A DNA stretch of 64,000 nucleotides from Psammoneis japonica. Lineage: Eukaryota. The notes beneath the pieces were generated by a model that saw only the letters and a list, made by a program, of their open reading frames with translations, did no database searches and had not been told where the DNA came from. The position numbers were made by a program, and so were the translations under genes. Location of the stretch: assembly GCA_008632985.1 (NCBI GenBank), contig QPGO01000285.1:1-64000 (forward strand), in the 5' to 3' direction. The stretch's first letter is position 1. Each line of letters starts with the position of its first letter. This document shows positions 1-60,039 of this stretch, piece by piece.

Positions 1-548
1 AGGGTGCAAAATTGCCAAGGGTGCAAGACAGCCAAGGGCTCAAAATCACAAAGGGTGCAAAATGGCAGCAAAAGGTGCAAAGTCAAAAATGGCGCAAAAT
101 GGCCAAGGGCGCAAAAAACGCCAATGGCACAAAATGACCAAGGGTGCAAGACAGCCAAGGGCTCAAAATCACAAAGGGCGCAAAATGGCGCAATGGGGTG
201 CCAAATCACAAAGGGCACAAAATGGCCAAGGGCGCAAAATGGCCAAGGGCTCAAAATCACAAAGGGTGCAAAATGGCAGCAAAGGGTGCAAAATCACAAA
301 GGGTGCAAAAAGGCCAAAGGTGCAAAATCACAAAGGGTGCAAAATCACAGTGGGCAAAAAATGGCAACAAAGGGTGCAAAATCACAAATGGCACAAAAAG
401 GCCAAGAGCTCAAAATCACAAAGGGCACAAAATGGCCAAGGGCTCAAAATCACAAAGGGTGCAAAATGGTGGCAAAGGGCACAAAATCACAAAGGGTGCA
501 AAATGGTGGCAAAGGGTGCAAAATCACAAAGGGCACAAAATCACAAAG

Positions 549-685
549 GGCGGGTTCCAACCCCAGGCAGGACTTGGTGTGACATTGGCCATGCGAGCTC
601 CGCAGCAAACTTCTGCTGCAATGAAAATGCGAATGATCGCCAACAGGAAAAGAGGCAATTTTGCGAACGCATCTCCTCCTTGGAA
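549..685 (+). mobile_element. MITE family, truncated copy (left end only)
   Basis: GGCGGGTTCCAACCCCAGGCAGGACTTGGTGTGACATTGG matches the left end of the full copies; no right TIR. Confidence 0.75.
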
Positions 686-1327: not shown

Positions 1328-1692
1328 GACACGTTCCAGACGCAGGCGGGAATCCGTGTGACATTGGGCCCGCAGAATTCTGCGTGCGAGCTCCGCACTA
1401 AAATCACACGGCAATTAAAATGTCAATGATCGCCAACAGAAAATGAGGCAATTTTGCGAACGCACAAACTTGCCCAGTTGCACTCTTCAGACATTGAAGA
1501 GTGCAGCTGGTGCGTTGTTGTTTCTGTAAATTCGTCACATGAAACATCTGGGGCTTCACAAAACAGCGAGTCTGGACAATTTTTTTAAAATGCCACACGT
1601 AGAAATGTGCATGCGAAACATGCGACGGATGACAAAAATTGTTTGTGTCACACGTCAGCACTGCGAGCTCCCACCCAGGGCTGGAACGCGTC
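1328..1692 (+). mobile_element. MITE (non-autonomous DNA transposon), TIR GAC(A/G)CGTTCCAG...CTGGAACGCGTC, 4-bp TSD
   Basis: Terminal inverted repeats; flanks GCGA / ACGA; an empty-site paralogue (GGGCGCGAAATGG) lies at ~903-915. Confidence 0.85.
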
Positions 1693-2499
1693 ACGAAATG
1701 GCCAAGAGCTCAAAATCGCAAAGGGTGCAAAATGGTCAAGGGCTCAAAATCACAGCCAGTGCAAAATGGCGGCAAAGGGTGCAAAATGGCCAAGGGTGAA
1801 TGAGCGCTGATGTGCTGTCACGAACATGGGCAGTTTGTGTGCTGTTGGCGATTGGCCCACTGCCGCTTGTTTGGTGGCCCCGGCAGCATGACATCTCACA
1901 ATTCCAGAACTTGTTGACGCTGTTCAACACTCTGTCTTGTCTTGCACCCAATTCTCAGCTGTCATGGTGGCATTTGCTTGCACTTTGTCAGAGCCAATGT
2001 GCTGTGATGTTCATTGCCTGGAATGGGCATTGCAAATGGTGCGACGGTGTCATTGCGATAGATTGTTTTTTGCGGCAAAGGCCATGTTGGTCCCGTGGTT
2101 GCTCGCGCAATCGCTGAGTCCTTTGCGCACATCAATGTTCATGGACATGAATGATGCGCTCTTGCAGATCAGAGCTGTGATCCGTCAGACATGATGTCAG
2201 TGGACGGTTGGCCAAGACACACAAACATTCGTGATGAAGACAACACAATGATTCATGTGTTGAGGTCTGTCATTTGACCATGTGCGTTTGGCTGACCAAA
2301 ATGCATTGTCAAATTGTTCAGACACTGTGCATGTGGGCACATGTCTGTTGGAAACCATTGCTGAGGTGTGACACCACCTGCTCGCGGGTTTGCCAAGTGG
2401 AAGCTGCCAAATTGGCATGAGAGCCACACATTTTTCTCACTTTCCTCCACTCACACAAGTGGATGCTCACACGTTGAAACGCGAGTGACTGCTCACACA

Positions 2500-4398
2500 C
2501 CATGGCCGCTGCTGCAGCCTTCACCGCTTGTCTTGTGCATTGTGGACACAGTGCACAGGCGCACACCCACACAGCCGGTCAAGGCTTTGCTGCCATTCAG
2601 GACTTGGAACAGGTCCCTTTGGCAGAGATTGCTGCCGTGACTGAGGGCCCACACAGCCAGCCAAGGCTTTGCTGCCATTCAGGACTTGGAGCAGGTCCCT
2701 TTGGCAGAGATTGCTGCCATGACTGAGGGCATTGTGAAGAGCGTGGATGCCGCCGCTGACCCCCAAGTCTGCTTCCCATGCCTGGCGAATTGCAAGTTCA
2801 AGGCACTGCGCGCATGGATTGACTGCCGCAGAGCCCGGAACCAACAGCCGACTGCTGCTCTCTTTGCTGGCAACGTCATTGGGAAAAGGACGGCACGTCT
2901 CACAGAGTTGGAGCCACTCAAGTCAGCAGACTCGGATGACGAATCGGCTTCCAAGACGGCCGCGGAACTCAAGAATCTGTGTGACTGGCCTGCCTTCCAA
3001 GAGTTGCTGGACGCGTTCCAGCCCTGGGTGGGACTCCGTGTGACATTGGGCCTGCAGAATTCCACGCACAAGCTCCGCAGCACAAGAATTTGATCAATGG
3101 ACACATTTGTCTTCAACATCAAATGAACGGCCAAGTTTGTGGTGCAATTGCACCTCTTGCCACTCAACGTTTTTGCAAATGCACCTGCACTGCACGATTC
3201 TTAAGACATTGCAGAATTGCGCTGCAACAAAACATGTCAAAAGTTTTTGGACGGATCGCTTGACAAGTGCACCGTAAAATGACACAAAATGTCAAAAAAT
3301 CACATGGAATTCTACGTGCGTGACATGCAACGAGATTCAAAAAACTGTCGATGTCACAGCTCAGCAGTGCGAGGTCCCACCTGGACCTGGAACGCGTCAC
3401 TGGAGACCGAACTGTGCCACCACCACAGTGCAGTTGCCGGCACACCCCTCATCCACTCAATTGGGGAGCACGAAGATGTCACTGCCAAAATGTTGGCTGC
3501 CACCTGCACTGCCATTGACGAACACCTCATTGCCACTGCTCGACTTGCAGGAGCTCAGCATGCACAGGATGGGCAACGCCTGCATGACCTCTTGAAGAAG
3601 TCAGTGACAGGGGGGCCCAGATGGGCTTTTGTCAAACCTTCCAATCGCAATCATGATGGTTGCACTGCTTTCTTTGCACTCAAGAGGCAGGCAGAAGGAT
3701 CGGCTGCCGCCACTGCTTGAAAGAACCGTGCTTGTGCACAGATTGCTGCTGCGAAGCACACCGGACGGGGTCAATTTACTTTCAACCAGTGCACTCAACG
3801 CCATCAAAAGGCTCACAACAACTTGTCCGAGCTTGATGAGCCGGCAGCCAAGACCAAGCAGGTCTCTGACTTTCTCAAAGGTGTCTCTGACCCCAGGTTG
3901 GAAACTGGCAAGAGTGCAGTTGACGGAGACCCGACAAAGCCAGTGGATTTTGAGGCATGCCAGCAGTGCATGAAGACTCTGGCAGAGAATGCCAAGAACC
4001 GCAATGCTGACACTCGTGGAATGGCGTCTGTCCAATGCCGCAGCAGCTGGCGTGGAAACCCTGGTGGCAAACACCAACCTAAAAAGGACAAGCCCGGGAT
4101 CAGGGCAGGCTGTCATCCTGTTGAAGAGTGGAGTGCTCTTGACAGTCCTGAGCAAGAGCAAGTCAAGAAGCTCCGCAAGGCCAAGAAAGCCGAGAAGAAA
4201 CGCAAAGCAGCAGCTGCATCCTTGGAGGCTGAGTCGGCCAATGCCGAAACTTGCGCTGTCAAGAAGGTGGCTGTTGCTGAGCCTGAACCCAAACCTGCTG
4301 ACAAACAAAAGGACTCCGAAGAGTCCAGCAAACCTGCTGCCAATGCAGGCACGCAGTTTGGATGCAGCACCCATGAGAAACCTCAGAAGGAGGAATGA
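2500..4398 (+). pseudogene. copia-1 gag remnant (split by the MITE at 3010-3398; ~80-bp tandem duplication at ~2576-2730)
   Basis: Segments WPAFQELL..., GTPLIHSIGEHE, FFALKRQAEG, KQVSDFLKGVSDPRLE resemble diatom copia gag; in-frame TGA at ~3718. Confidence 0.7.
3010..3398 (+). mobile_element. MITE copy inserted in copia-1 gag
   Basis: GACGCGTTCCAG...CTGGAACGCGTC perfect 12-bp TIR core; flanks GCTG / ACTG. Confidence 0.9.
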
Positions 4399-4479
4399 AT
4401 GGCAGCGCCAGCACTGAAAGGCATGGAGCCGACTGTTGCCAAACCTGCTGGCACCACACGTTGTTCATCCAGGCAATTC

Positions 4480-6890
4480 TCAAAGGATGTGCACATCTCT
4501 TTGTCATTTTCTGGACATTCAGATGGCAAAGCAACCAATGATTTGGACTCACACACTGACACGTGTGCTGTTGGATCCAATTTTGCAATGTGCTCTGACG
4601 TCATCACCCCTGAGATGGGAGCCTTCTGCTGATGCCATGGCACAAAAGGAGGAAGCGCACGCACATGCTGGTGTGCGCCAGCGATCATTGAAGTCTGATG
4701 GACAGGCAACAATGATGAATGTGACCAGGTGCATTGCTTCAATTCATTCACATCAAATGTCTCATCATGAAGAGAACGTCATTGTGGACACTGACGACGA
4801 CAATTCTCTGCATCACCGCCTGGTTGCTCAGGTGAATGTCTCCCACAACGACATTGAGGGAGACGGGCTGCACGACCGGCATGACCCAGATGTCCACCCG
4901 GACTGCAGAAATGGGTGCATGCACTGTCAACCTTGAGTTGTGCATCGACTGTCACACCCGAGATGCTCTCCAAGAGGTGGAACATTGGCCTGACGGCCGC
5001 TGAGAACACCCTTGGAGTGATGACCCAGGCAGGGGTCTGCAATGTCTGCACACCATCAGAGCGGAAAGTCTGGAAGAAAGCCCCCTCTGGCCAGATGTTT
5101 TTGAAGGTCAAATCGATGTGTGGCAAGACAGGAGGAAGTGCACTTGCCAACGGAAGAGGGTGTGACAGGTTCTGTCCTTGGAAAAGGAAACAGGACCACC
5201 CGAATGCCGTCATGTCATTTGTGCATGACGTTGGTGCACCGCAAGTCCTTGTGTCGGATGGCGCGCCGGAAATGGCAGAAGGCCAGACCAAGGACATTTG
5301 CAAGGAACACAGGATGCACCAGGAGGTGTCCACCCCATGCAGCCCCTGGCAGAACCTGGCCGAGGCATCCATTCCTGAGTTGAAGAAGAGAAAAAAAACT
5401 CGAAATCCACTTTGCCGCTGCCTCGCTGCTGCCCACACCAACACCGACCACAGCAGACCCACACCCCCCAGTGCCCACAAAGGGCAGCAGGGACAATTTA
5501 AACACCGTTGAATGTTGTCAGAAAGACAGTGCCATTGGCGCATTGTCCGAAGGCAGCACCGTTAACACATCGTCAGAAAGAGGCTGTTTGTTTTAAGTCA
5601 GAATGGCAGCTGACCGGATGCTTGTTGCATGGCAACCACAGTTGCTGTGCCTCAAAGAATGGACAAGCCCAGCCACACCACTTGGAAGACACCAAAACAA
5701 ACGCTGCAGAAAAACCAAACATGTGTCTGTCTTCAAAGACAACATGCTTGAAGAGATGTGAGAGAGATTCCTGGGATGAAAAAACACCCAAGAAAGTCCA
5801 ACACGGACCCCAACGAAGGAAAAGGAAATGATGTTCAGAATTGTCGGATGAAATTTCCGTCATGCATGGAATTGTGCAGAAATTGTGTGCTGAAGTTGCA
5901 ACATCGAAGAGCATGAAGAAGCAACACCGAGACTTGGAACTGCGAACCACTTGGAAGACTTGTGACAACCCACTTTGGAACACCGTAGAACATCCATCAC
6001 ATGTTGCAGCACATTGGAGAGAAAACTCAAAGGAAGCATGTTGGTGAGAAGAACAAGAGGATGAACCTCACATGGTTGTCGACTTGAAATTCTGGCCAAA
6101 TGCGTGGAATTGCACACGAAACTTGTGCTGAAATGGCTGACTTGAAAATTGCTGAATCGTGCAGAATTTAATGCAGAAAACATGCTGACATTGGGAAAGA
6201 AGTGCAAAGAGATGCAACACCATGGCGGCGCTGCTCCCCCGGATGCAGACAAAACAGAGTGTCCCCTCCGATGTCTTTTGGTTTCTCTGTCATTGGCACA
6301 ACTGCCTGACGCCCCAAAGTGCCCGAGGAGGTTGGCACACCACCACACTCTCACACAGGACAATCCCACGGGCGCTTGCGTGGAATTGTGAGTTGAAGAA
6401 GAGAGCCCGCATGACTCCACGCCGGACTGGCACTCACAGGTGACTTTGGCCCCAAAGTGCCAAATGGGCATGTGATGTCCGATGCATGATTGCAACTGTC
6501 ATGTCAGACATGGGAGGACGAGTCCCAGAAGAAGAGGTGACAGGTTCAACACCCAATGTTTCGTCCCTCTCTCTCTCTTTGATTGGCATCAACCTGTCCA
6601 CTGTTGCATGCCTGTGGTGGAGTTCCCACATGAGAAGAAGTGCATCGGCCGTTGGCTCAGAGTGGCTGACAACTGCACTGACAATGTGGCATTTGTTGTC
6701 CTGCCCGAATCAGGCAGACCCATCATTCGGAAAGATGCACGGGCCATGCCGGAGGATGACCTTAAAACTGTGGCGATCCAAACAGATCTTGCATCAGTTG
6801 ATCAGGCTTTGATCAAACGGCTCAACATCCTGGAACAGGGCGCCAATGCTGACTTCCCTGAACTCCCTGACAACTTCATGGACAAATGAT
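4480..6890 (+). pseudogene. copia-1 protease + integrase remnant (interrupted at 5392-6388)
   Basis: LDSHTDTCAVGSN (aspartic protease motif), VTPEMLSKRWNIGL, VGAPQVLVSDGAPE, PCSPWQNLAEASI, FPHEKKCIGRWL. Confidence 0.8.
5392..6388. mobile_element. Unclassified ~1-kb insertion flanked by a 16-bp direct repeat
   Basis: TGAGTTGAAGAAGAGA at 5376-5391 and 6389-6404; integrase homology stops and resumes at these repeats. Confidence 0.65.
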
Positions 6891-6899
6891 GCGATGCTG

Positions 6900-8600
6900 T
6901 TGAACCCGTGGAACCTGACTCTTCCAAACCAGAAGCTGATGAGTGTGCCCCGGAGGGGCTGGATGAACACCTCACAGCTCAAGTCATGTTGCCACGAGGA
7001 GGCAAGCTGACTCATGCCAGGGTTGTTGCACGCAAACGAGATGGCGGCGGGGCTCCCATTGGTGCTGGGAATGCCTCACAGCTCAAGTCATGTTGCCACG
7101 AGGAGGCAAGCTGACTCAAGCCAGGGTTGTTGCATGCAAACAAGATGGCGGCGGGGCTCCCGTTGGCGCTGGGAATGACAACCCTGTCCCAGACTCGAGG
7201 ACATGCAATGTGGAGTTTCCTGATGGATCCACTGATTCCTGTGCTGCTGACGCAATTGCAAAGAACCCATTTGCTCAGACAGACTCTGAAGGGAATGCCT
7301 GCCAGGTTGTGAAGGAGACAGTCGATCACCGATGTGATGCCCGTGCCGCAACGGCTGATGACGGGCACACAATGACTGAGACTGGCAGGCGTGCTCCCAG
7401 GAGGATGACGGCAGACTGGGACCCACAAGTCAAATGGAAGGATGGGACTGCATCCTGGGCTCCCCTCAAAGATTTGAAGGAATCCAATCTAGTCGAGGTT
7501 GCTGAGCACGCTGTGGCAAACGAGGCAGCCAGCGAACCAGCTGTTGACTGGTGGGTCCGAGACATCTTGCATCGCAGGTCAAGGATCCTGAAGAAAGTCA
7601 AGTCGCGTCACTGGAAACGCACGCACAAGCTCGGAATTGAACTCCCAAAATCTGTTGAGGAAGCTGTGGAAACAGACAACAGAGTGAGGACTGACTTCAG
7701 GTTCAAGGCTGTTGAGGAGGAAATGCGCAACATCATGCCTGCATTTGAGTTCAGCGATGATGACACTGCACCGGTCGGGTGCAAACACATTGATTGTCAT
7801 GTGATCTTTGACATCAAGAGTGCCCTCCAACGCAAAGCAAGGTTCGTGGCCAGAGGCCATCAAACCAATCCACCCAAGGAATTGACTTGTTCCAGTGTGG
7901 TGTCGCGTGACAGCACTGGGATGGCATTCACTGTGGCAGCTCTGAATTGCCTGGAGGTCCTGAGTGCAGACGTTCAGAGCACCCACTTGAACGCACACAC
8001 TGAGGAAAAGTGTCATGCTGCTGCTGGCCTGGAATTTGGGAAGCACAACAAGGGAAGGCCGGCGATTGTTGTCCGAGACTTGTGTGGTCTCAAGTCTTCA
8101 GGTGCAAGATTTGGGGAACACATGGCAGCCACTTTGCGCGACACTGGGTTCATGTCTGCATGTGAGCTGCGGTTGAGCCGGACGGCTTCAAGCACTGGGA
8201 GTGCATGCTTGTTTGCGTGGACGACTTGTTGTGCATCTCCCATGAACCTCAGAAGGTCGTGGATCATGTGAGCTCCAGGTGCACACTCAAGGATGGAAGT
8301 GTCTGCGAGACGGAAGAGCACTTGGGCGCCCAGATTAGAAAGCACCAGTTGTCTGAATCGGACGGCGAGACATGCTGGGCTGTGTCCTCTGACCTTTGTG
8401 TCAAAAGGGCATTGGCTGATGTTGAGTTGGAGCTCAAGAAAACTGACAGGCGCCTTCTGATGAAGGCGTCAACGCCCTTGAGCTTGGGACACAGGCCTGA
8501 ACTGGATGGCTCACCTGAGGTGAACACCAAAACTGCCAGCTGCTGCCAAGGCCTCATTTGTGTGCTGCGATGGGCAGTTGAGCCAGGGCCCACTTGGCAG
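6900..8600 (+). pseudogene. copia-1 pol: pre-RT region + reverse transcriptase remnant (RNase H apparently deleted)
   Basis: VKWKDGTASWAPLKDLKES, KSRHWKRTHKLGIELPKSV, RKARFVARGH, TCSSVVSRDS, ADVQSTHLNA, LCGLKSSGA, LVCVDDLLCIS (YVDD read as CVDD); ~104-bp tandem duplication at ~6970-7175. Confidence 0.92.
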
Positions 8601-9321
8601 TGCCAGGAGTTGTCCTGTGGTGAGTCCCAAAAGGGGACAAACCGAGCAGGTTTGCCCCGCAGGTGCATCTTTTCCCACCCCCAGAATGAAAATGCCGCCC
8701 TGGGACGGGGCAGCATCAGGTTGCATTTGTCCATCAATCTGGCCCAAGCGGAGCTGGCATCAATTCAAGGGGGCTGAATGAATCCTGACATGCTGTCACG
8801 AACATGGGCAGTTTGTGTGCTGTTGGCAATTGGTCCACTGTCTCTCATTTGGTGGCCCTGGCAGCGCAGCATCTCACAATTCTGGAACCTGTTGATGCTG
8901 CTCAACACTCTGTCTGGTCTTGCACCCAACCATTGGCTGTCATGGCAGAATTCACTCAAGGGCACAAAATCACAAAGGGCGCAAAATCACAAAGGGCACA
9001 AAATGGCCAAGGGCGCAAAATCACAAAGGGCAAAAAATCACAAAGGGCACAAAATGACCAAGGGCACAAGACAGCCAAGGGCTCAAAATCACAAAGGGCA
9101 CAAAATGGTGGCAAAAATCACAAATGGCACAAGATGGCCAAGAGCTCAAAATCACAAAGGGCGCAAAATGGACAAGGGCGCAAAATGGTGGCAAAGGGTG
9201 CAAAATGGTGGCAAAGGGCACAAAATTGCAAAGGGTGCAAAATGATGGCAAAGGGTGCAAAATCACAAAGGGTGCAAAATGGCCAAGGGCGCACAACCAC
9301 AAAGGGTGCAAAATCACAAAG

Positions 9322-9717
9322 GACAGGTTCCAGCCCCAGGTGGGACTCGGTGTGACATTGGGCCCGCTGAATTCTGTGCTTGAGCTCCACAGCAAATTTG
9401 TGCTGCAATGAAAATGTGAATGATCACCAACAGAAAAAGAGGCAATTTTGCGAGCACATCTCCTCTTTCATGCTTGGAGCACATCATTGGCAGTTGCCGG
9501 GGTGTGTTCTGCAGACATTGAAGAACATGCCCAGCGCATTTTCATTCTCACAAATGTCGAAAATGGAGAGCCTCTGGCTTTGCAAAACAGGGAGCATGAA
9601 ACAATTTTGAAGAGTTCAGCAAGTGGAAATGCACGTGCACGACATGCAACACGATCCAAAAAACCATTGATGTCACAGTGCAGCAGCACGAGGTCCCACC
9701 TGGAGCTGGAGCACATC
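9322..9717 (+). mobile_element. MITE copy
   Basis: GACAGGTTCCAGCCCCAGGTGGGAC...GTCCCACCTGGAGCTGGAGCACATC; flanks AAAG / AAAT. Confidence 0.85.
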
Positions 9718-10659
9718 AAATGGCGCAAAATGGTGGCAAAGGGTGCAAAATCACAAAATGGCACAAAATCACAAAGGGTGCAAAATTGCAAAGGGTGCAA
9801 GACAGCCAAGGGCTCAAAACTGCAAAGGGCGCAAAATGGCGGCAGAGGGGGCAAAGTCCCAAAGGGCGCAAAATGGCCAAGGGTGCAAAGTCCCAAAGGG
9901 CGCAAAATGGCGGCAAAGGGTGCAAAATCACAAATGGCGCAAAATGGACAAGAGCTCAAAATCACAAAGGGGGCAAAATGGCTGAGGGCTCAAAGTCACA
10001 AAGGGTGCAAAATGGCAGAGCAAAGGGTGCAAAATGGCCAAGGGCACAAAATCAAAAAGGGCTCAAAATGGTGGCAAAGGGTGCAAAATGACGTGGGGCG
10101 CAAAATCACAAAGGGTGCAAAATGGCAGCAAAGGGTGCAAAATGACAAAGGGCACAAAATCAAAAAGGGCTCAAAATGGCGGCAAAGGGTGCAAAATGAC
10201 AAAGGGTGCAAAATGGCGGCAAAGTGTGCATGATGACAAAGGGCACAACATCACAAATGGCACAAAGTGGCCAAGGGCGCAAAATCACACATGGCACAAA
10301 ATGACCAAGGGCGCAAGACAGCCAAGGGCTCAAAACCACAAATGGCGCAAAATGGCCAAGGGCGCAAAATGACAAAGGGTGCAAAATGGCGGCAAAGGGC
10401 ACAAAATGGCCAAGGGTGCAAAATCACAAAGGGTGCAAAATGGCCAAGGGCACAAAATCACAAAATGCGCAAAATCACAAAGGGCACAAAATGACCAAGG
10501 GCTTGAGATGGCCAAGGGCGCAAAATTGCAAAGGGTGCAAAATGGCAGCAAAGGGCGCAAAATCACAATGGGCAAAAAATGGCCAAGGGTGCAAAATCAC
10601 AAAGGGCGCAAAATGGCGGCAAACGGTGCAAAATCACAAAGGGTGCAAAATGACAAAGG

Positions 10660-11217
10660 GACGTGTTCCAGCTGCATGTGAGCCAAATCGTGCACAAGAA
10701 CAACATTTGCGCAATTTTTGTGTGCCCCCCCAACTTGCGATCGATCTTTCACCACCAAAAGCACAGATTTGCAGAGGTGCAAATGTGTTTTGCAACACTG
10801 ACAAGACTTGCATGAGTGCTTCAATGTTGTTGTCATTGCGCCATCTGTGTTTTTCATTGTGGTGAAAGATTTGCAGCACAGCAGATGATTTTTGGCAAAA
10901 ATGTTGCCATCATTTGGGTGTCACCCAAACACGTCTTTCTGCAGTGCCACTTGGTGGGTTTTCTGCCTGTGAAGAAATCTCGCTGCAAATCTGCTGATGT
11001 GCAATCAGCGCTGAGTCCACTGAGGAAGTTTGTGATGCATGTCCCATGAGGACTTGAATGCCCCTCAAAAAAATGTTCAAATGTTCATGCTCCAGAAGCC
11101 CACAAGAGTCAATCCATCCAAGCATTTTGTGCGAAAATGCTGCACACACTAAAAGATGCATGAGTTGCGCTCAAAGTGGATTGTCATTTTGTGTGTCACC
11201 TGGCACTGGAGCATGTC
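10660..11217. mobile_element. Related longer MITE (~560 bp) sharing the same TIR core
   Basis: GACGTGTTCCAG...CTGGAGCATGTC; perfect 4-bp TSD AAGG; different interior, with a second inverted copy at 45593-45915. Confidence 0.8.
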
Positions 11218-11723
11218 AAGGGTGCAAAATCACAAAGGGCGCAAAATGGCAGCAAAGGGTGCAAAATCACAAAGGGCACAAAGTGGCCGCAAGGGCGCAA
11301 GATGGTCAAGGGTGCAAAATCACAAAGGGCACAAAATGGTGGCAAAGGGTGCAAAATCACAAAGGGCGCAAAATGGCCAAAGCCACAAAATCACAAAGGG
11401 CGCCAAAATCACAAAGGGCACAAAATGACCAAGGGCTTGTTCAAGTTGGTGCAGTGTGGGTGCTTTTGTCATGGAGAAAGTTTGTGAAATCTCAAAAGTG
11501 GTTGTTGTGTGAGTTTGAGGATGAGTTTCCTGTGCGCGGCAATGGTTTGAAATGAAATGAATGATGAGTTGTGACAGGTTCACAACTGGGTGAAATTGTG
11601 GAATTGCGGGGGTGATTGTCGCGCAAATGGAGCCATTTTGAAAGGCAAATGTTTGATGCATGTTGAGCAGAGCTGCAAACAAGATGCATGTGCAATGCTT
11701 GCAGATGAAATGAGTGTGCTTTT

Positions 11724-12122
11724 GACGTGCTCCAGCTCCAGGTGGGGGACCTCATGCTGCTGAACTGTGACATGATTGTTTTTTGTCATCCGTCGCATGT
11801 TTCACATGTGCATTTCCACGTGTTCTGTTGCAAAAAATTGTTCCACACTGCCTGTTTTGCAAAGCCAAAGGCTCTCTGTTGTCTGCATTCATGACAATGA
11901 AAATGCGCTGGGTGCATTCTTTGATGACTGAAGAGCGCACCTGAGCATGCTGCAAAGATTGTGCTTCAAGTGCAGAGGAGGAGATGCGTTCGCAAAATTG
12001 TCTCTTTCTCTGTTGATGATCATCCATGTGTTCATTGCTTGACAATTTTTTCTGTGGAGCTCCCGCGCAGAATTCTGTGGGCCCAATGTCACAAAAAGTC
12101 CCACCCAGGACTGGAGCCCATC
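11724..12122 (-). mobile_element. MITE copy (inverted)
   Basis: GACGTGCTCCAG...CTGGAGCCCATC; TSD TTTT. Confidence 0.85.
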
Positions 12123-12404
12123 TTTTTTTTGCCTTTTGGATGGCAAGTGGACATGTGCAAATTCAGTGCAGTTGAAACGAAAATGATTTTTTCTGATTTT
12201 TGCAGTGGGAGATTGACACAGGAACAAACAAGAAGGATTGCATGACAGACACCAGCAATCACATGGCAGAGTGAGACCCACCATGAAGAATTGTTGGAAA
12301 GGATCCATCTGCTCCAATGGAGAAGAAGTCCAAATCTGCACAAGCACTCTGACCTGGACGTGTGTTGTTGCGCCAAAATCCAGCGAGCATGAAACTGGAA
12401 TGAC

Positions 12405-12796
12405 GACGGGCTCCAGTCCCAGGTGGGACTCCGTGTGACATTGGGCCCGCAGAATTCTACGTGCGAGCTCCGCAGCACGAGAATTTGACCAATGGACACA
12501 TTTGTCTTCAACATCAAACAAACTGCCAAGTTTGTGGTGCAATTGTGCCTCTTGCCACTCGACGTTTCTGCAAATGCGCCCGCCCTGCGTGATTCTTAAG
12601 ACATTGTAGAATCGCGCTGCAACAAAAAAATGTAAAAAGTTGTTGGACGGATCGCTCAACAAGTGCACCGTAAAATGACACAAAATGTCGAAAAAATCAC
12701 GTAGAAATCTGCGTGCGCGACATGCGACGTGATTCAAAAAAACTGTCGATGTCACAGTTCAGCAGCACGAGGTCCCACCTGGACCTGGAACGCGTC
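12405..12796 (+). mobile_element. MITE copy (least mutated; retains several TA and CG)
   Basis: GACGGGCTCCAG...CTGGAACGCGTC; perfect TSD TGAC; close to the copy at 3010-3398. Confidence 0.92.
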
Positions 12797-14850
12797 TGAC
12801 CACATTTGTCTGTGGTGGAAAGAGCGGCACAAAACTTGCCCCTGGATTGCCAGTTGATGACCTGCTTGCAAAGGAACAATGGACAAAAGCCATTCTTGCA
12901 GCCTTCTTTGACAGCTGGGCTGTCCATGAAACTTTTGAAGATCTGCGCGCATTTGCTCCAAAGAGTCAGTTTGAAATGCTCTCCACCAAATCCAGTGCCG
13001 TTGTTGCCATGAATGTGCTCAATTGCACTGTCATGGGCAACTTTGTCGTCATCAGTCAAGAGAAACATTTTCATTGCACACAGCTGCAGAGATGCCAGGT
13101 GGGTTGCAAGCTGTGTTGCAAGCAAGAGAAGCAAGCAATGTGGCCTTGCGAGATGGCTCCTGGCCATTTGTGTGGATGCCACACATGACAATGCCCAATG
13201 GCCCAGGCACTTGGACAGGAGGAGGAGGAACATGGGCTGTGTGCTGCCTCTGTTCTGGACAGAACATCACAGAGGCAAAATGGGGTGCGCGAGTCACAGA
13301 GCATTGTTGCCCGCCTTGCAATTCTTGGCGCACTCCTTTGTTTGTTGGGAGCACACCTCTCTGACTGAAGCGCAGGTTTGCTCATTGGCGCTCCATGTTT
13401 GTCATTCATTTCCACCCTTGCTCACCAATTTTTGACATGATCATTGCCCCACGACCCAAAATTGTTGTCTTCCACATTCCCACCTGAAACATGACAAAAT
13501 TGCACTGGACCGGCACATGCATGTTCTGCTCTCAGCAACTCCATCAAATTTCCACACTCTTTGTCACCATTGGGTGATGTCGCTGAAATTTTCCATTGAA
13601 GTTGTTGCGCGCGATGCTTTCATGTTGCATGTTGTCACATCATGCGCCTGTGCAGTGAAAACAGTGATCACACCACAAACGCTCACCCTGCTCTCAGCCA
13701 GTCAACTGTGCTGCAATCAGATTTGTCCTGCCTGCACCGTCTCTGCAGAATTTCTGCCCTGTGAACTCGTTGCCCGGCTGGATGAAAACAAGAAAAAGGC
13801 ACACCGGCCCAACCCAAATCAAACAGGAATTGCCGCAATGCACTCATTTTTTGTTCCCCTCCCTGAGCCCTTTTGGTCATTCCCTCCTGCTAAATTGCCC
13901 TCATTTCCCGGGAATTCCCCAAAAGGGCAAGGTGATTCCCCCTTGCCCTTGCCATTTTTGGGAATCCTCAATTGGGCAAAACAACACTGAGCTGTTGGCA
14001 TGCCATTGACAGGACAGGACAAGTTCTCTGCCCACCTTGGGTGCTCCGTTGGTTGGTCTCTTGCTCTTGCAGACATTGACGTTCACCAAGAAAGATCACC
14101 GGACACATTCCCCACAGGCACAAAATCTGGATCTGACAATTCTTTGGCTGACAAAGAAGACTCCATTTGTTCTGCGGAGATGGGTGGCATGGAATCCTCT
14201 CCAGACCTTTGCGGGGGACGACAAGTTTTCCGACGATCTTTTTGATGGCAGTGGCCACTGCAATGACACTGACAAAAGCAGCGAAGATGCCAAAAGCACC
14301 TGTGTTTCCCTCTGGAAAATCTGCTCATGCCAAGAAATGTGGTGCATCATGCCCCTTTTTCCACGCTGTTTTCTGATCTTTTTTGTTCAACTTTGACAGC
14401 ATTGAAGACTGACGAAGATGTGGCTGTCTTCACAAGTGGCAACAGGGAACACCACACTGCTAAAAGTCATTTCTGGAGGACAACAGAAATGCAACGCAGG
14501 AGGAAGCTCTTCCTTTCCAAGATTGACCGGACTCCTGGCCCCGACTGATTCATCAGGGAGCGCTCCAGCCCCGCTTGTTTGCGCAAGGGTGATTTGTCCT
14601 GATGTCATCCAGAATTTTTTTCCCAGATGATGGTTGTCCATGGGAGCCTGTGTCATTGAGATCCAAGGGCGGCCTGATGCAGGATGCACTGGTGTTTCCT
14701 GCATTGGCTGTGCTGAATCTTTGGTTGTCCCTTGCAATGACCCCAACACTCAACATTTGTCATGTCTTGGATGTTCGCGGGTGTGCACATCTGGCCATTG
14801 TGGCAAGCTGTCAAACCGGGCTCAACCAATTTTTTCCACATGGTCACCAA

Positions 14851-15249
14851 GACGTGCTCCAGCTCCAGGTGGGACCTCGCACTGCTGCACTTTGACATCA
14901 ATGGTTTTTTTTTAATCGCTTCGCATGACACGCGCACACATTTCTGCGTGCTGCATTCTACAAAATTGTTTCATGCTCCCTGTTTTGCGAAGCCAAAGGC
15001 TTTCTATTTTCAACATTCATGAGAACAAAAATGTGCTGGGCACATTCTTCAATGTCTGCAGAACACACCCAGGCAAACTGTCAATGATGTGCTGCAAGTG
15101 TGAAGGAGGAGATGCACTCGTAAAATTGCCTCTTTTTCTGCTGGCGATCATTTGTTTTTTCGTTGCAGTGCAAATTTGCTGCAGAGCTTGCAAACAGAAT
15201 TCTGCGGGCCCAATGTCACACGGAGTCCCACCTGGGACTGGAGCCCACC
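14851..15249 (-). mobile_element. MITE copy (inverted)
   Basis: GACGTGCTCCAG...CTGGAGCCCACC; perfect TSD CCAA. Confidence 0.88.
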
Positions 15250-15861
15250 CCAAGCACTCGGATGACTTCAGGAGCATGCCAGAGTTGGCCGCTCTGACAC
15301 ATTTCTGTCATGCCATCAATTTGTTTGGCGTGACTCCACGCATGATGAACCCAAGCAGGGGCAACTTCATCTCCGCACAATGCACCAATCATGATGAAAT
15401 TGCAAGCGACAATGAGGGCCATCTTGCCAACGTTGCAATGGGCAACCGTTGTGGCAGCAAGAGGAGGTGCATTGACTCAGGAAACAAGGAAGAGCACCAA
15501 TGCATTGCACCAAGTGAAAAACTTGACAACTTGACTGTGAACACAAGAGCAGACAAAATGACCACTGATGTGATGTCCTTGTTGATTTGGGTCAATGAAA
15601 ACACAGGAGCTGCACACTTTCAACACTCTGTCATCAAAAAGAAGTGTCAAGAAGTGCGCAATGGTTGGTTTTGTGAAACTGACATTGACAAGTTCCGGCA
15701 ATGATCACTTCACATGTGCTTGTTGGATGGCAGGTGAAGTGCTCTTCTCCATGCTTCTGGGATGTCTTTGAAATTTTCTTTGCCTTGGTCTTCAAAAGTC
15801 TCTCCCCCATTGACGCGCATGTTTGCGCTGGCCCACCCACAAATGCTCAATTGAAGAGTGT

Positions 15862-16170
15862 GCGCAAAATCACAAAGGGTGCAAAATGTCAAAGGGCACA
15901 AAATCACAAAGAGGGTGCAAAATCACAAAGGGTGCAAAATGGCGGCAAAGGGTGCAAAATCACAAAGGGCTCACAATGGCCAAAGGCACAAAATCACAAA
16001 GGGCTCAAATCACAAAGGGTGCAAAAGGGCTCAAAATCACAAAGGGCACAAAATGGTGGCAAAGTCATCAAAATCACAAATGGCGCAAAATGGCCATGGT
16101 CGCAAAATCACAAAGGATGCAAAATCACAAAGGGCGCAAGTCAGCCAAGGGCAAAAAAATCACAAATGAC
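15862..16170 (+). repeat. Satellite A, short array
   Basis: AAAATCACAAAGGGTGC units. Confidence 0.9.
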
Positions 16171-19100: not shown

Positions 19101-20052
19101 GAATCATCTGGCAATGATGGGCATGCCGCGAAGGCAGAAGACTCCCATTCTCATCTCTCATTTTCCCATCAATTTTTAGGATGGTGACAGCAACCAAATG
19201 TCCAATGTGGAAATCCTCTGGATGGCAGGGATTCAAACAACAACCCTGTTGTAAAACCGCAGTGCAGGCAGCCACAAAATGGCGCAGCTGTGAAAACACA
19301 ACTCCCCAAGTGCAAAAAAGGGAAACAGTGGCAAGGAAGGACAGCAAGTGCATCCAAGCCAACTCATTGATGACACTGATCAATGAGGGCAAATGGCCAA
19401 ATGGATCAAGGTTGCACTTCATCTTTAGAACATCAAAGCTGGGGATGCAATCGTCAATCAACAAACCGCTTCTTGCATGGCCCAAGCCAACAGATTTGCG
19501 CAACTCTGGCAGCGAGCTGCAAATGGACCAGACGTTGTCAATGTGAGGTGAGTGAATGGTTTGGGTTGCAACCTGTTGGTCATGTTCACTGTGCATGTGT
19601 CCAATGGCGGCTGTTTGTTGCAGGTCCCCTGCATCACTGAAGGCTCCATTGGAAAGAGACACAATGGGTGCTTTGGCTGTCTTGAGGCTGTTGTGACCAT
19701 CGAAGCAGCAATCCAAAAGCCTGCCAAGTTCTGTGCTGGCCAAACGCAGCGAAGGAACACAACAGCCATCCATCATTTTGTTTCTTTTCTTTGTGTTGAT
19801 GTCCGACGGGTTGCTGTGGTTAAACAAAACATGTCCGGGGGCAAACCAAGGGATGTCGGTGACTTGCTTGACACACTCAGAAACAGCAACAAACCCAGAA
19901 ATCACGACAGGATCATCAACAGGCCGGACTTTGCCAGTCGGTGCACCATTGTGAGAACTCTTCCTTCCCGCGCATTGGCTGGATGCAAAGCCACAGTCGG
20001 CAAACATGCCAAGCGTCTGACAGACAGCGTGAGAGGAGGAAGTGCCAGCAGA

Positions 20053-21265
20053 GTTGGGTGAATGCTGTGTGATGATGCTGTGCACAACACATGCCCAAAT
20101 GTGTGTGCGGAGAAGGGACTCAACAACCAGCCGAGTGGCATCATCTTTGCCTCTTGGGTTGTTGAGAACCTCTCATGCTCGTCAGGTGCCGGCGGCAGTG
20201 CACAGCATTCTGAGTGGTCACGAGTCTTTGTGCTTCCTGAGGTTGCTGGTTCGAAGCAGCCTCAAATCCAAGCCTCCTTTTCTTTCTTGGCCTGCCCCTT
20301 TCCGACCCCATCTGGGGTGGGCGGTTGGGCTTCGAACCCACTCCTCCCTTGGCCGGATGCACCACATGACGCCAACCCATCCTGCCCATCAGAGGGAGTG
20401 CATGGTCAAAATTTCGCAAGTCCGCCGTGTGGATGTGCCACATGGTGACAACCCATCCTGCGATGAGAGGGAGAGTTGGACAAATGCTGTGTGATGATGC
20501 TGTGCACAACACATGCCCAAATGTGTGTGCGGAGAAGGGACTCAACAATTGGCCGAGTGGTGTCATCTTTGCCTCTTGGGTTGTTGAGAACCTCCCATGC
20601 TCATTGGGTGCCAGCGGCAGTGTGCAGCATTCTGAGTGGTTGTGAGTCTTCATGCTTCCTGAGGTTGCTGGTTCGAATCGGCCTCAAATCCAAGCCTCCT
20701 TTTCTTTCTCGGCCTGCCACTTTCCAACCCCATCCGGGGTGGGCGGTTGGGCTTCGAACCCACTCCTCCCTTGGCCGGATGCACCACATGGCGCTAACCC
20801 ATCCTGCCCAACAGAGGGAGTGCATGGCAAAAATTTCGTAAGTCCGCCGTGCAGATGCGCCACATGGCAACAACCCATCCTGTGACGAGAGGGAGAGTTG
20901 GACAAATGCTGTGTGATGATGCTGTGCACAACACATGCCCAAATGTGTGTGCGGAGAAGGGACTCAACAATTGGCCAAGTGGCAATTTCTTTGCCTCTTG
21001 GGTTGTTGAGAACCTCCCGCACTCGTCAGGTGGTGTGCAGCATTCTTGGATTTGAGGCCGATTCGAACCAGCGACCTNCAGGAAGCGCAAAGACTCACAA
21101 CCACTCAGAATGCTGTGCACTGCTGCCGGCACCCAATGAGCATGGGAGGTTCTCAACAACCCAAGAGGCAAAGATGACACCACTTGGCCAATTGTTGAGT
21201 CCCTTCTCCGTGCACACATTTGGGCATGTGTTGTGCACAGCATCATTGCACAGCATTTGTCCAAC
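20053..21265. repeat. 422-bp tandem repeat (~2.4 units) closed by an inverted copy of the first ~220 bp; foldback/long-TIR-like element
   Basis: Unit starts GAGTTGG at 20051, 20473 and 20895; 21046-21265 is the reverse complement of the unit's 5' half; a single N at 21078. Confidence 0.85.
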
Positions 21266-23046
21266 CAGCAGCAGGAGTTTTGCCAGCTTTCTTGGAGAGA
21301 GCCTTGAAATCCAATGGATCAAGGATGGGGTGGCCCTCATTGACGACATGAAGGCAGCTGCTGTGGTGGTTCTGGTTGGGAGGACACACCTTGAACTGGA
21401 CAGCGCCGTTGCAATGAAACGGCACAATGGCCCGGTGCATGTCTGCGCGTGCCATCATGTGATGACAGTGCTTTCCGTCAGCACAAATGGAAGCCTGCCC
21501 CCAGTTTAGATTGGGCAGCACAAAGTGAGCGCAAGTGATGTGTGCCCAACAAGCATGGCTGGCCTGCCCAAGCTTGCAAAGTGCGGATGCTCTCCTCCAG
21601 CGCAATTGTTTGGGCTCCTTGTGCACCATGCCAATGTCCTTGAGTCCTCTCCATTGTCTGGGAATGGAGTGTGGGACAGTGGATGGCTGTCAAGTTTTGA
21701 CAGGAAGGGATGGCACCACGTTGTCAGGAATTTTTAGCCAAGCCCAATCCAATCATTCACAGCGGCATCAGTTGAGGGAGTGCTGGTCAATGATGCGTGC
21801 GATGATGCAGCGGCAGGAGGCAATGAGGTTGCTGCAATGTGAGTGGGGGGGAGTGGGGTTCAACATGTGGGGGGGAGCAGCAGGAGACAAACCAGTGCAT
21901 TGGTCTGCGGACTCAACAACACCAAGATTGGCGCCATTGCAAATGCCACAGGAGGCGGCATCATGATGATCAACCATGCCTGGAGTGGGATGGCCTCCAA
22001 AAGCTGCACCCCTGCAACAGGCAGAGGCCATGGGATGAACCCTGGCAGCATGTTCTCTGGCTCTCAAGCCAAGAAAGTAAGATCCAGCGGCTGCACCCCC
22101 AAAGTGAGGAGGGAGCTGCGGACACAAACTGACAAAATCAGTGCAGAGAGCATCCGCTGACATCGTTGCATCCCCAATTGGAGTGGGGGGCACATGGGAC
22201 AAATCTGGGTGGCAACATCGGATGAGCCGCCAAACAACAAAGAATGTCTGGCTGCGCCCCCAACAAAAATGAGGGGCATGAGATGAGCCCTGGCAGCACG
22301 CTGGACATCTCTGGCGCCGTCCAAGCAAGGCGGCAATGCACAAATCCGAGCAGACAAAGACGGTTGTTGATCTGATGGTTGTGCTTCCTGGTCCTGTGCT
22401 GCACTGTTGCAGTGCTTCTTTGACGGTTGAGAGTGCTGAGTGCCCCTCTTTGCCTTTGTGGAGCCTGATTGGGATGAACAGCGACCCATGGCACCAGTGA
22501 GGATGTGTTGTTCATGTGGCAAAATGAGACTGGATGGCAACAATGTGGGCACCGGTGAAAAAATGGTGAACAAAAATTTTGGGGGCAGGGATGCAGGAGA
22601 TCCAACAAAAATTTTGGAGCAAACAAACATGCAGAGTGAACAAGACATTGACACAATTAAAGGCTGAAGGTTGAAATTTTTGCACTGGTCAGAAGACAGC
22701 TTTGCCCCATTGGAAAGACAGAAGTGGCAGATTGCACAAAAATTTAGAGCACCCGTCAAACAGAGAAGAAGAATTTTGCATGGGCAGCCCACACAGAAAA
22801 TGCGCACAAAGGAAGCCCTCTGGGAAACACTGGGTGATGCAGACTGCTTCGAATGGGTGGGACAAATTAAATCAAGCAAACATCAATTGAGTTTGTCTGG
22901 GGTGCTTGGGTCAGGCGGGCGCTGCTGGAATCATGAGGGGTGGTGTGAAATTGATGGACTGATGAAATTTGATGAACTTCACCCCTCATTTGAGGAGCCA
23001 CAAAACCCAACGGAACAATCAAACCCCCCGTTAAACCCGCCTCTGA

Positions 23047-24792
23047 CATCAAGGAAAAAGACCAGTTGTTTCAAGGAAAATGACCAGTTGTTTCAAGGAA
23101 AACAACAAGTTGTTTCAAAGAAAACAACAAGATGTTTCAAGGAAAATGAACAGTTGTTTCACAGAAAACAACAAGTTGTTTCAAGGAAAATGTCCAGCTG
23201 TTTCAAGGAAAACAACAAGTTGTTTCAAGGAAAATGTCCAGCTGTTTCAAGGAAAACAACAAGTTGTTTCAAGGAAAACAACCAGTTGTTTCAAGCAAAA
23301 TGACCAGTTGTTTCACAGAAAACAACAAGTTGTTTCAAAGAAATGGCCAGCTGTTCCAAGGAAAACAACAAGTTGTTTCCAGGAAAACAACAAGTTTTTC
23401 CAAGGAAAACAACAAGTTGTTTCAAGGAAAATGACCAGTTGTTTCAAGGAAAACAACAAGTTGTTTCAAGGAAAATGACCAGCTGTTTCACAGAAAACAA
23501 GTTGTTTCAAGGAAAATGTGGCCAGCTGTTTGAAGGAAAACAACAAGTTGTTTCAAGGAAAGCAGCCATTTGTTTCAAGGAAAGCAGCCAGTTGTTTCAA
23601 GAAAAATGACCAGCTCTTTCAAGGAAAACAACGAGTTGTTTCAAAGAAAACAAGACGTGCTCCAGTCCTGGGCGGGACTTTTTGTGACATTTGCTCCACA
23701 GAATTCTGCATGCAAGCTCTGCAGCTTGCACTCTGGTTGATGGATGCAGCTGTCCTCTGCACAAAATGAACAGCCAAGTTTGCAGCACATGTGTCCCTGT
23801 TTGCACTTGCAGCTTTGGACAATGTGTGCCTGCCCTGCGCCATTCTCAAGACAGTCGAGAATGGATCAGAAGAGAAAACACAAAAATTTGTTGAATGGAT
23901 TGCCCGACAATTGTGCCACAAAATGATGCAAAATTTTGCCAAAGTCATGCAGAAATGCACGTGCGCAACATGCAACACAATTTGAACAACCGCCATCAAT
24001 GTTGCAGCTCAGCAGCACGAGGTCCCACCCAGACCTGGACCGCATCACAACAAGTTGTTTCAAGGAAAATGACCAGTTGTTTCGCACAAAACAATCAGCT
24101 GTTTCAAGGAAAACAACAAGTTGTTTCAAGGCTTGAAACAACCAGTTGCTTCAAGGAAAACAGCAAGTTGTTTCAAGGAAAATGACCAGTTGTTCCAAGG
24201 AAAACAACAAGTTGTTTCAAGCAAAATGACCTGCTGCTCTTTGTTGATGTCAAGAAAACCAACCAGCTGTCTCAAGGAAAACAGCCAGTTCTTTCAAGGA
24301 AAGCAACCCGTTGTTTCAAGGAAAACAGCCAGCTCTTTCAAGAAAAACAACCAGCTGTCTTTGTTGACATCAAGAAAGCCAGCCAGTGACCAGCTGCTTC
24401 AAGGAAAACAACAAGTTGCTTCAAGGAAAACAGCAAGTTGTTTCAAGGAAAATGACCAGTTGTTCCAAGGAAAGCAACAAGTTGTTTCAAGGAAAATGAC
24501 CTGCTGCTCTTTGTTGATGTCAAGAAAACCGACCAGCTGTCTCAAGGAAAACAGCCAGTTCTTTCAAGGAAAGCAAACCACTGTTTCAAGGAAAACAGCC
24601 AGCTCTTTCAAGGAAAACAACCAGCTGTCTTTGTTGAGGTCAAGAAAGCCAGCCAGTGACGTTGTTTCAAGGAAAAAACAAGTTGTTTTGAGGAAAATGA
24701 CCAGCTGTTCCAAGGAAAACAACAAGTTGTTTCAAGGAAAATGACCTGCTGCTCTTTGTTGACATCAAGGAAACCAACCAGCTGCCTCAAGG
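23047..24792 (+). repeat. Satellite B (~22-bp quasi-palindromic unit CAAGTTGTTTCAAGGAAAACAA / CCAGTTGTTTCAAGGAAAATGA)
   Basis: Dozens of tandem units; interrupted by a MITE and by copia-2. Confidence 0.95.
23654..24046 (+). mobile_element. MITE copy in satellite B
   Basis: GACGTGCTCCAG...CTGGACCGCATC; perfect TSD ACAA. Confidence 0.88.
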
Positions 24793-32505: not shown

Positions 32506-32519
32506 TGCTGTGAAGGACA

Positions 32520-42651: not shown

Positions 42652-43599
42652 GCCAAGCTAAGAGGGCCATTGGAAATGAGAAACGCAAAGATGCAGGACA
42701 AAACAATTGGGTGCTTGTTCACAACCATTTGTTGGCGTGCGTGTGTTGGATTGTTTTTTGAATCAAATTGTTGAGTGTGCACCCTGCTGACTTTTGAATG
42801 GGAGACACTTGGTGTGGTGGCAATGGCCGTTGGAGAGTTGGCCACAGGGAGGCAATTGGACATGAGGGCATGCACACATTTGGAAATTAAAGACGGCATT
42901 TTTGAATTGGGGAGAGGATCTGTTCAAATTTCAGTGCAAATGTCCAGCCAAACAAAGAAACATTGGTGAAAGACACTGTTCAGGTGAGCAGAAATTTGTG
43001 CTTGGAAATGGAGAAGGATTGCCGTCACCCACACGTGGTCCACAAGACTGGCCACATCCATCAACATGCTTGCAGCAAGTGCACATGAGCACACACCAGA
43101 AATGAAAACACAGCGGCAGCAGCAAGGACAATGGCGCATGTGGAGCAGGAGCTGAGCTCAACCGAGTGGATGGCGGATGAGGCAAAGGTGGTGGAAGACA
43201 CAGCGAAGGTGAGAGATCATGCAAAGGAAACATTGTTCCTCAGTGTGACACTCACATTTGATGAAAAGGAAATGGAGGAAATGGGCATGCTCTGCTGAGA
43301 TTATGAACAGAACTGCGGCCCCAAGATGATGCATGGCCTGCTGAACGAATTGCCCGAGGCAGAGCAAAAAACATGCCTGCACCACCTGTGGCTTGCGATG
43401 AAACAAAAAAAGATGCATCAGGAGTGGCCAGCAATTGAGAGGTTGAATGCATGCCAGGCGCAGCAGGACAAGTTCCACGGTGAGTGATGACGGAGGGTGA
43501 AACGAGGACAGCAAATGTGATTGCTGACGTCGCGTTTCCTGCCACAAATGAAGCTCTTTGTGCATGCTGCAATGAGAACAATTGCATCTTGCCATTGCC

Positions 43600-45388: not shown

Positions 45389-45592
45389 CACACACAGCAC
45401 CCACACAGATGCTGCGCCATGGAGCACATGACGATCTGCCTCCAGAGAGCAGAGAGAGAGAGCTGGCAGGCCTGCCGTGCTGCAGAGCAAAGGCTGGGTG
45501 TCGCAAGACCTTGATCCGCTCTCCATTTGGCACTGAGCCGTGATGCACGTTGCTTCAAAATGGCGCTGACATGACAGTGGGAACTGCTCCAG

Positions 45593-56517: not shown

Positions 56518-56593
56518 AGCAGTAAGCGCGTGTGGGGCGTTGCCGTAATTTAAACCTTGTAGTATTTCATGGACTACTATTTTAAGTATCCTA

Positions 56594-59973: not shown

Positions 59974-60039
59974 CACACTATGTTTCATAATAAAGAGCTA
60001 TTGCGTTTTCGATGCTGACGATCGACGATGAGTCCACAT

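Follow-up and report, generated by a model that had tools for sequence, protein, structure and literature searches.

In repeat-induced point mutation (RIP) of fungi, cytosine is converted to thymine mostly at CpA, which creates TpA. Hypermutation confined to TpA became known in 2026 from a single chlorarachniophyte alga, Bigelowiella natans (Mettrop et al., bioRxiv 10.64898/2026.01.13.699255). According to the available text of this preprint, 231 of 302 nuclear mutations in mutation-accumulation lines fell into two integrated viral regions, where they were A-to-G or T-to-C changes at TpA and occurred at ~6e-7 per site per generation. The targets were silent integrated giant-virus and virophage DNA. 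The same text reports 124 TpA-poor, CpA+TpG-rich clusters in the B. natans genome, enriched for reverse transcriptase and DDE domains. An ADAT2-like deaminase is proposed by its authors from prediction only, and the Discussion describes A-to-G changes with a 5' T or U neighbour as ADAR-like. Here, 64,000 nucleotides of Psammoneis japonica DNA (positions 1 to 64,000 of contig QPGO01000285.1, assembly GCA_008632985.1; referred to as the window) were analysed, in which a family of miniature inverted-repeat transposable elements (MITEs) lies in a domain of transposons and satellites that is almost devoid of TpA. From its sequence, this domain has probably been subject to regional TpA-to-TpG/CpA mutation, with the MITEs decayed in place after insertion.

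The TA-poor domain covers positions 1 to ~45,900, extends past the left end of the window and is at least 46 kb long. TA rho was 0.00–0.07 within the domain and 0.52–0.77 in the flank (~46,000–64,000), and 104 TA were counted in 1–46,000 versus 721 in 46,001–64,000. CG rho was 0.23–0.57 within the domain and ~1.0 in the flank; for CA+TG, rho was 1.57–1.85 and ~1.1, respectively. G+C of the domain was 0.46–0.55, and TA was the sole A/T-containing dinucleotide wiped out. At the right edge (45,870–45,960), TA density was back to normal over ~100 bp, and no obvious sequence landmark was present there. CA made up 0.46–0.60 of CA+TG in each 2-kb bin of the domain. Because CA and TG are balanced in every bin, both strands are affected alike. 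Relative to the flank, the deficits of TA (37.8 per kb) and CG (33.8 per kb) sum to 71.6 per kb and, with CG loss thus included, match the TG+CA surplus of 75.0 per kb. TGA accounted for 2141 of the 2310 stop triplets in the six frames of 1–46,000. With TAA and TAG almost absent, 140 open reading frames (ORFs) of at least 120 amino acids (aa) appear in the domain, most of which are probably spurious. Satellites with 17-bp and 22-bp units make up the domain, together with MITEs, the decayed remains of a copia-like element and other decayed repeats (Table 1).

CpG depletion spanned exactly the same domain as TA loss. CpG decay was read from the sequence pattern (CG deficit, matching TG/CA gain, and paralogue sites with CG, TG and CA). 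The coincidence suggests that putative cytosine methylation and the TpA process have a common target.

The locus shares with the B. natans hypermutation, as described in the available text, the change of TpA to TpG or CpA on both strands, the regional confinement with the rest of the sequence normal, and TpA loss with CpA+TpG gain as the long-term trace. Regarding restriction to TpA, a few private T-to-C changes in TTT context were found on window copies, and CpG decay runs alongside. The host is a chlorarachniophyte there, whereas the flanking gene here is diatom-like. The targets are viral inserts there and a transposon/satellite domain here, with no viral domain or gene among the 112 of 140 domain ORFs scanned, in which heavy decay may mask origins. 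Depletion is far deeper here than in the B. natans virus region (rho 0.45). CpG co-depletion and the neighbour rule set out below are present here and unreported in the available text of the preprint. In a literature search that left subscription journals mostly uncovered, TpA-erasing hypermutation was not described in diatoms, and the preprint was the only close precedent found.

Fungal RIP is likewise regional, repeat-directed and transition-only, and likewise ruins transposon ORFs. Its polarity is opposite: here TpA is destroyed and G+C rises, and neither the TpA excess nor the AT-richness of RIP was found. Deamination of 5-methylcytosine also gives TG and CA and is also active in the domain, but leaves TA untouched. 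Deaminase editing of transcripts or complementary DNA (cDNA) by ADAR/ADAT or APOBEC enzymes marks one strand, whereas both products occur here.

The evidence for the direction of change is much stronger outside the four MITE copies on which the initial annotation had relied. Ten repeat pairs were compared, all from the domain: units of tandem arrays, a copy in inverted orientation and two pairs of MITEs. They held 38 CA/TG double differences, versus ~7.1 expected from independent CpG decay (42 CG/CG and 49 CG/x sites). Given this excess, TA was present when the repeats were duplicated and was lost later, independently in each copy. The two satellites show both ancestral site classes predicted by the TA-loss hypothesis. 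The pyrimidine-purine site of the 17-bp satellite reads CG, TG or CA (23, 54 and 28 units), which marks it as a CG-type site. That of the 22-bp satellite reads CA or TG, with no CG in 50 units (P = 4e-6 at the CG retention of the 17-bp site). The annotation had held that CpG decay alone would not suffice, and both the double differences and the CG-free satellite site bear this out.

For an outgroup comparison of the decayed copia-like reverse-transcriptase ORF, 35 relatives were chosen by coverage out of 150 listed. Tyr content was 2.7–4.8% in the relatives versus zero in the window ORF. The aligned core has 167 conserved columns, of which 124 matched the consensus and 43 differed. These mismatches comprised TA-to-TG (8), TA-to-CA (6), ambiguous cases (2), CpG decay (5), other transitions (9–10), transversions (6) and multi-step changes (6); one mismatch was CA-to-TA. 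TA-to-TG/CA was thus the largest class, with 14–16 of the 37 single-step mismatches. All six conserved Tyr were replaced, four by Cys and two by His. Some changes span codon borders, e.g. T/ATT to T/GTT (slash, codon border). Two further decayed ORFs, each with one relative (P0272 and P0273), behaved alike: the Tyr positions of P0272 were His or Cys in the window, and eight of the nine Tyr of P0273 were Cys or His. Over both relatives, the 13 Tyr were read as Cys (8), His (4) or Leu (1), with one reverse case. In the three decayed ORFs together, 18 of 19 relative Tyr positions were Cys or His and none was retained. The process probably acts on DNA and not on transcript or cDNA, because TG and CA products are balanced in the retroelement ORF and because DNA transposons and satellites, too, are decayed.

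MITE copies were found by nhmmer profile search of the window. The family comprises seven full copies as well as a partial one, lies entirely within 1–24,100, and is wider than the four copies first cited. Elements are ~365–399 bp in size and non-coding. They have the features of MITEs in general: they are short and very numerous, end in terminal inverted repeats (GACGYGYTCCAG...), are flanked by a 4-bp target duplication and, for c12405, have an identified empty site. The 5' end GACGYGYTCCAGYCC... pairs with the 3' end ...GGRCTGGARCRCGTC in all seven full copies. Target duplications differ by copy, being perfect in four of seven and agreeing at three of four bases in the other three. Imperfect duplications were considered as a polarity test and rejected, since the G/A mismatch at c3010 and c1328 fits TA-to-TG and CG-to-CA equally. 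Within the window, no autonomous partner was identified. In the copy tree, subfamily A is ((3010, 12405), 23654) and subfamily B is (1328, ((9322, 14850r), 11723r)); c12405 has by far the shortest branch and is the least decayed copy.

In sequencing run X1, 5655 contig pieces were found over 4.4 kb, and the summed depth on c12405 was ~2e5, versus 30–55 for single contigs; the MITE family is very abundant. One X1 contig joins 12400 to 12797 and skips 396 bases, i.e. the element and one duplication, with four letters fitting either side. This joint marks an empty site, which stems either from the other haplotype or from a paralogue of the flanking DNA. Depth of the empty-site contig was about 50% of that summed over the flank; therefore the c12405 insertion is polymorphic or younger than a duplication of the flank. 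In a second X1 contig, positions 12401 and 12800 are connected through two other letters. Sequencing run X2 yielded one matching piece only, and two metagenome scans for the conserved MITE 5' end gave no match.

Table 1. Features of the window, with positions, strands and remarks.
Feature	Position	Strand	Remarks
MITE c1328, subfamily B	1328..1692	+	5 TA, 23 CG; flanks GCGA/ACGA
MITE c3010, subfamily A	3010..3398	+	3 TA; in copia-like remnant; flanks GCTG/ACTG
MITE c9322, subfamily B	9322..9717	+	0 TA; within 17-bp satellite
MITE c11723r, subfamily B	11724..12122	-	0 TA; target duplication AAAA
MITE c12405, subfamily A	12405..12796	+	6 TA, 28 CG; target duplication TGAC
MITE c14850r, subfamily B	14851..15249	-	4 TA; target duplication TTGG
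MITE c23654, subfamily A	23654..24046	+	0 TA; target duplication ACAA; within 22-bp satellite
Partial MITE, 5' part only	545..683	+	E = 2.3e-30
Integrase-core remnant, copia-like retrotransposon	4885..5508	+	rve, E = 0.0081; weak, below Pfam cut-off
Decayed copia-like reverse-transcriptase ORF	6967..8268	+	weak RVT_2; 0 Tyr in 434 aa; outgroup direction test
Decayed ORF, unnamed repeat	37443..38855	+	one relative, P0272
Decayed ORF, unnamed repeat	41260..42657	-	one relative, P0273, 69% identical over 172 aa
17-bp satellite, largest array	9717..10660	+	pyrimidine-purine site TG 54, CA 28, CG 23, TA 0
17-bp satellite, further arrays	1-1323, 1696-1770, 8958-9322, 11215-11436, 15862-16166		
22-bp satellite, interrupted by MITE c23654	23049..24751	+	pyrimidine-purine site CA 32, TG 18, CG 0, TA 0
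22-bp satellite, second array	31656-32517		
DNA polymerase alpha catalytic-subunit gene	51960..56041	+	compositionally normal flank; internal control

For the analysis of direction within the MITEs, the 45 alignment columns with a pyrimidine-purine step in all seven copies were used (alignment A1). Sixteen were invariant, 16 contained CG, eight held CA and TG only, three held TA, TG and CA, one held TA and TG, and one held CA and TA. The three trio columns (67, 326 and 334) are the sites of the initial annotation and contain no CG in any copy. The strings and coordinates given there for the site after GAATTC, i.e. TA (12458), CA (3063) and TG (1381 and 23707), were all present, as was the reciprocal pair CACATGGAATTCTACG (~3301) and CACGTAGAAATCTGCG (~12698). 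For a further pair, ACATTGCAGAA (~3207) and ACATTGTAGAA (~12601), the strings were recovered and the polarity proved ambiguous: this fourth site reads ACATTG[C/T]AGAA, with CG in c23654 and AA in the four B copies. At column 326, two copies that are not sisters read TA, three read TG and two read CA. CA and TG are not one step apart, and therefore a mixed CA/TG column needs a CG or TA intermediate. CpG decay explains about half of the variable columns (16 of 29). The CG-holding columns keep CG in 47% of their cells; at this level, ~0.2 CG-ancestral columns with zero CG in seven copies are expected if copies are treated as independent, which the tree model below does not do, and 13 such variable columns were observed.

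A maximum-likelihood model with four states (CG, TG, CA and TA) and single steps only was fitted on the copy tree. In the homogeneous version, rates per branch-length unit were 14 for TA-to-TG/CA, 1.0 for the reverse, 0.9 for CG decay and 0.06 for return to CG. Equal forward and reverse TA rates were rejected by 28 log-likelihood (lnL) units. In the terminal-branch version, source elements (internal branches) evolve at a low rate, and copies, once inserted (terminal branches), are subject to rapid decay. This version was better by 13.7–17.8 lnL units in all six settings (two branch-length sets and three root positions). Its forward/reverse ratio was ~50 (profile interval ~25–150), and TA decay was ~7 times CG decay on terminal branches (13 vs 1.8), with 4–17% TA among pyrimidine-purine sites at the root. 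Ancestral reconstruction with directional rates, run on the seven window copies, thus gave TA-to-TG/CA at 14–50 times the reverse rate.

In the terminal-branch version, P(TA) at column 67 (after GAATTC) was 1.00 in the ancestor of c3010 and c12405 and 0.37 at the root (TG 0.61). The corresponding values were 1.00 and 0.94 at column 326, and 0.96 and 0.95 at column 334. The proposal that TA is ancestral at the cited sites therefore stands for the ancestor of these two copies; at the family root, TG is more likely after GAATTC. Among the columns with TG and CA only, TA was inferred at the root for 29 (0.90), 392 (0.92), 370 (0.69) and 408 (0.65). The MITE model, together with the repeat pairs, satellites and outgroup proteins, supports independent post-insertion hits to TA on one strand or the other. 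These comparisons demonstrate the direction of the change and show that it is confined to the domain, affects both strands equally and took place after duplication or insertion.

TA occurs in 13 MITE columns. Approximately four of them (67, 312, 326 and 334) support a relic origin, and six involve transversions. The surviving TAs are a mix of relics and new arrivals, and the reading of TA as a relic holds for the former only. Copies richer in CG were also richer in TA, with (CG, TA) counts of (28, 6), (23, 5), (19, 3), (13, 4) and three times (10, 0). The MITEs held 18 TA in 2733 bp, versus 83 in 43,167 bp of the remaining domain, and were thus ~3.4 times richer (Fisher P = 2.7e-5), as expected if the MITEs arrived later than the rest of the domain. 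TA count versus terminal branch length was tried as a clock and rejected, since the relation was not monotonic (outlier c1328).

Survival of TA depended on the neighbouring bases. Relative to the flank, survival by 3' base was 13% for TAA, 7% for TAG, 3% for TAC and 1% for TAT. TTAA (4.9x) and CTAA/TTAG (4–5x) were over-represented among the survivors, and ATAT, GTAC and ATAC/GTAT were represented by none. Either the process prefers TAT over TAC, TAG and TAA, in this order, or TAA is regenerated faster. At 11874, 12008, 12568 and 15141, the window MITE copies read C where nearly all genome-wide copies read T, in TTT/TCT context; this hints that T-to-C in the domain is not strictly confined to TpA.

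Under the proposed explanation, TpA would be converted to TpG or CpA by A:T-to-G:C transition on either strand. The conversion would be nearly complete in the domain, and ordinary CpG decay would proceed in parallel, several times slower. Each MITE would have been inserted separately with TA and CG sites and would then have decayed in situ. Because each copy decayed independently in place, one paralogue has TG, another CA and occasionally one TA. By analogy with the TpA-only hypermutation of B. natans, the process may be enzyme-driven editing targeted to chromatin or repeats. Candidate chemistries would be adenine deamination at 5'-TA, or modification of thymine to a base that mispairs with G.

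The main alternative for the cited sites is steady-state turnover. In this case the domain was TA-free before the copies arose, and present TAs are transient products of C-to-T or G-to-A changes at TG or CA, such that the bias is real and the polarity at the cited sites wrong. Several observations speak for turnover or otherwise weigh against the relic reading and the regional process. The homogeneous model fits best without TA at the root, TG/CA flips passing through a short-lived TA that is formed from TG or CA at rate 1.0. The TAs of columns 143 and 285 appear to have arisen from TG or CA. The TA at 12633 rests on an A where 99.8% of the family depth reads C, and is best read as derived; likewise, the TA at 7490 is a derived CCA-to-CTA change at a conserved Pro of the reverse-transcriptase ORF. 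Copy c1328 has the longest terminal branch and yet retains TAs, four of five being TAAA, which needs context-dependent resistance or a new origin; survivors in general lie mainly in TTAA and YTAA contexts. The MITE alignment offers few data, and its central part is poorly aligned between the two subfamilies. Root TA is favoured by only 3.0 lnL units, and relic TA hinges on the better-fitting but post-hoc split into terminal and internal branches. The dinucleotide balance given above takes the genic flank as baseline, which the domain's original composition need not match. Finally, the rate in B. natans was measured in mutation-accumulation lines, whereas the process here was read from paralogues and outgroups and not watched in living lines. 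Turnover is in turn contradicted by the better fit of the terminal-branch model in every setting, by column 326 with TA in non-sister copies alongside both products, by the Tyr codons of the relatives, which show that TA was formerly present, and by the higher TA content of CG-richer copies. On balance, turnover appears improbable, and decay of inserted TA in place is preferred.

CpG methylation and deamination with ordinary transitions would explain the CG depletion inside the domain, the 16 variable columns that hold CG and the site of the 17-bp satellite. In addition, the comparison with genome-wide copies (run X1) showed mainly CpG-type changes among its best-supported differences, for the variant positions listed (40 of 501, none at the trio sites). 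This route nevertheless has no means of removing 96% of TA, predicts about seven of the 38 double differences, and leaves both the 18 of 19 Tyr-to-Cys/His replacements and the CG-free satellite site unexplained; as the sole cause it is refuted and its probability is negligible. Selection or structural constraint against TA (DNA flexibility, nuclease sites or stop codons) is also very improbable. A mild TA shortage is common in genomes and is seen in the flank, but the domain consists of decayed transposons and satellites, its edge is sharp, loss is near-total in six frames, and the overwriting of conserved Tyr, Ile, Leu and Met of the reverse transcriptase is damage and not benefit. A sequencing or assembly artefact, in which modified bases at TpA of silent chromatin are misread as TG or CA, deserves mention, since a platform is recorded neither for the assembly nor for run X1. 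Contigs of run X1 were, however, identical to TA-free unique stretches (records 4 and 6, zero other letters), and 682 X1 pieces were at least 99% alike, X1 possibly being the source sample and hence not independent. Moreover, paralogues differ cleanly at single sites, with TG in one and CA in another, the domain is also poor in CG, and the surviving TAs obey a graded neighbour rule; we regard an artefact as highly unlikely. A last alternative concerns the chemistry of the same process: TET/JBP-type hydroxylation of T in TpA of silenced repeats to 5-hydroxymethyluracil (5hmU), which mispairs with G and gives T-to-C on either strand. In dinoflagellates, TET/JBP homologues make 5hmU, which is enriched on repeats and silences transposons, and in Crypthecodinium cohnii it takes the place of T preferentially within TA and TC, according to the available part of PMC11572971. 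The strand symmetry found here is compatible with this route. The B. natans authors prefer an ADAT2-like adenine deaminase, by prediction only in the available text, and adenine and thymine chemistry are not separable from sequence alone; thymine chemistry is possible, though we consider it rather unlikely.

Among the remaining features, Pfam scanning of the 112 domain ORFs gave two weak transposon matches and two at chance level only; the other 28 of 140 lie within satellites or MITEs. A protein atlas comparison gave nothing further beyond Pfam, and no Rfam family was found across the window. The ORFs related to P0272 and P0273 have no Pfam domain and exactly one relative each in 5.8 billion proteins, and are members of an undescribed repeat family. 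Summed contig depth in run X1 reached ~4800 at 13808–13990; therefore another high-copy repeat lies between c12405 and c14850r. A 25-nt piece similar to the MITE terminal inverted repeat (GACGTGCTCCAGTCCCAGGTG...) is located at 45590–45615, ~300 bp inside the domain edge. In the normal flank, an 848-aa ORF (46591–49137, minus strand) with many 12- to 105-bp tandem repeats and 58% G+C had no Pfam match. The best relatives of the DNA polymerase alpha gene are 66–73% identical, and all three rows with organism names are diatoms; judged from this one gene, the flank appears diatom-like and not chlorarachniophyte, pointing to a diatom or a near relative as the source. On these grounds both a dinoflagellate origin and B. 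natans itself were rejected. The gene is present as two long overlapping ORFs (51960–54869 and 54815–56041), the sequence pointing to a short intron or frameshift at ~54,815–54,869.

A broader reading is an active, domain-targeted DNA-editing defence in diatoms or a close relative that erases TpA from transposons and satellites once these are inserted. It would be two-stranded, would follow the neighbour rule (TAT and TAC most exposed, TAA least) and would act together with cytosine methylation, as a counterpart of RIP with opposite polarity. Because a chlorarachniophyte shows the same signature, great age and a broad distribution across the SAR (stramenopiles, alveolates and Rhizaria) supergroup would be implied for such a system. 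This reading is tentative, and its chance is put at somewhat below even. With a diatom-like case far more advanced than that of B. natans, TpA hypermutation would not be peculiar to one alga or to viral inserts and would be a general route by which repeats are disabled. The enzyme could then be found by comparing deaminase or TET/JBP genes common to lineages with TA-free domains. The graded neighbour preference and the co-occurring CpG loss provide two handles beyond the preprint. In TA-free domains, stops are TGA only, which gives long spurious ORFs, and Tyr is read as Cys or His, which misleads gene callers and homology searches.

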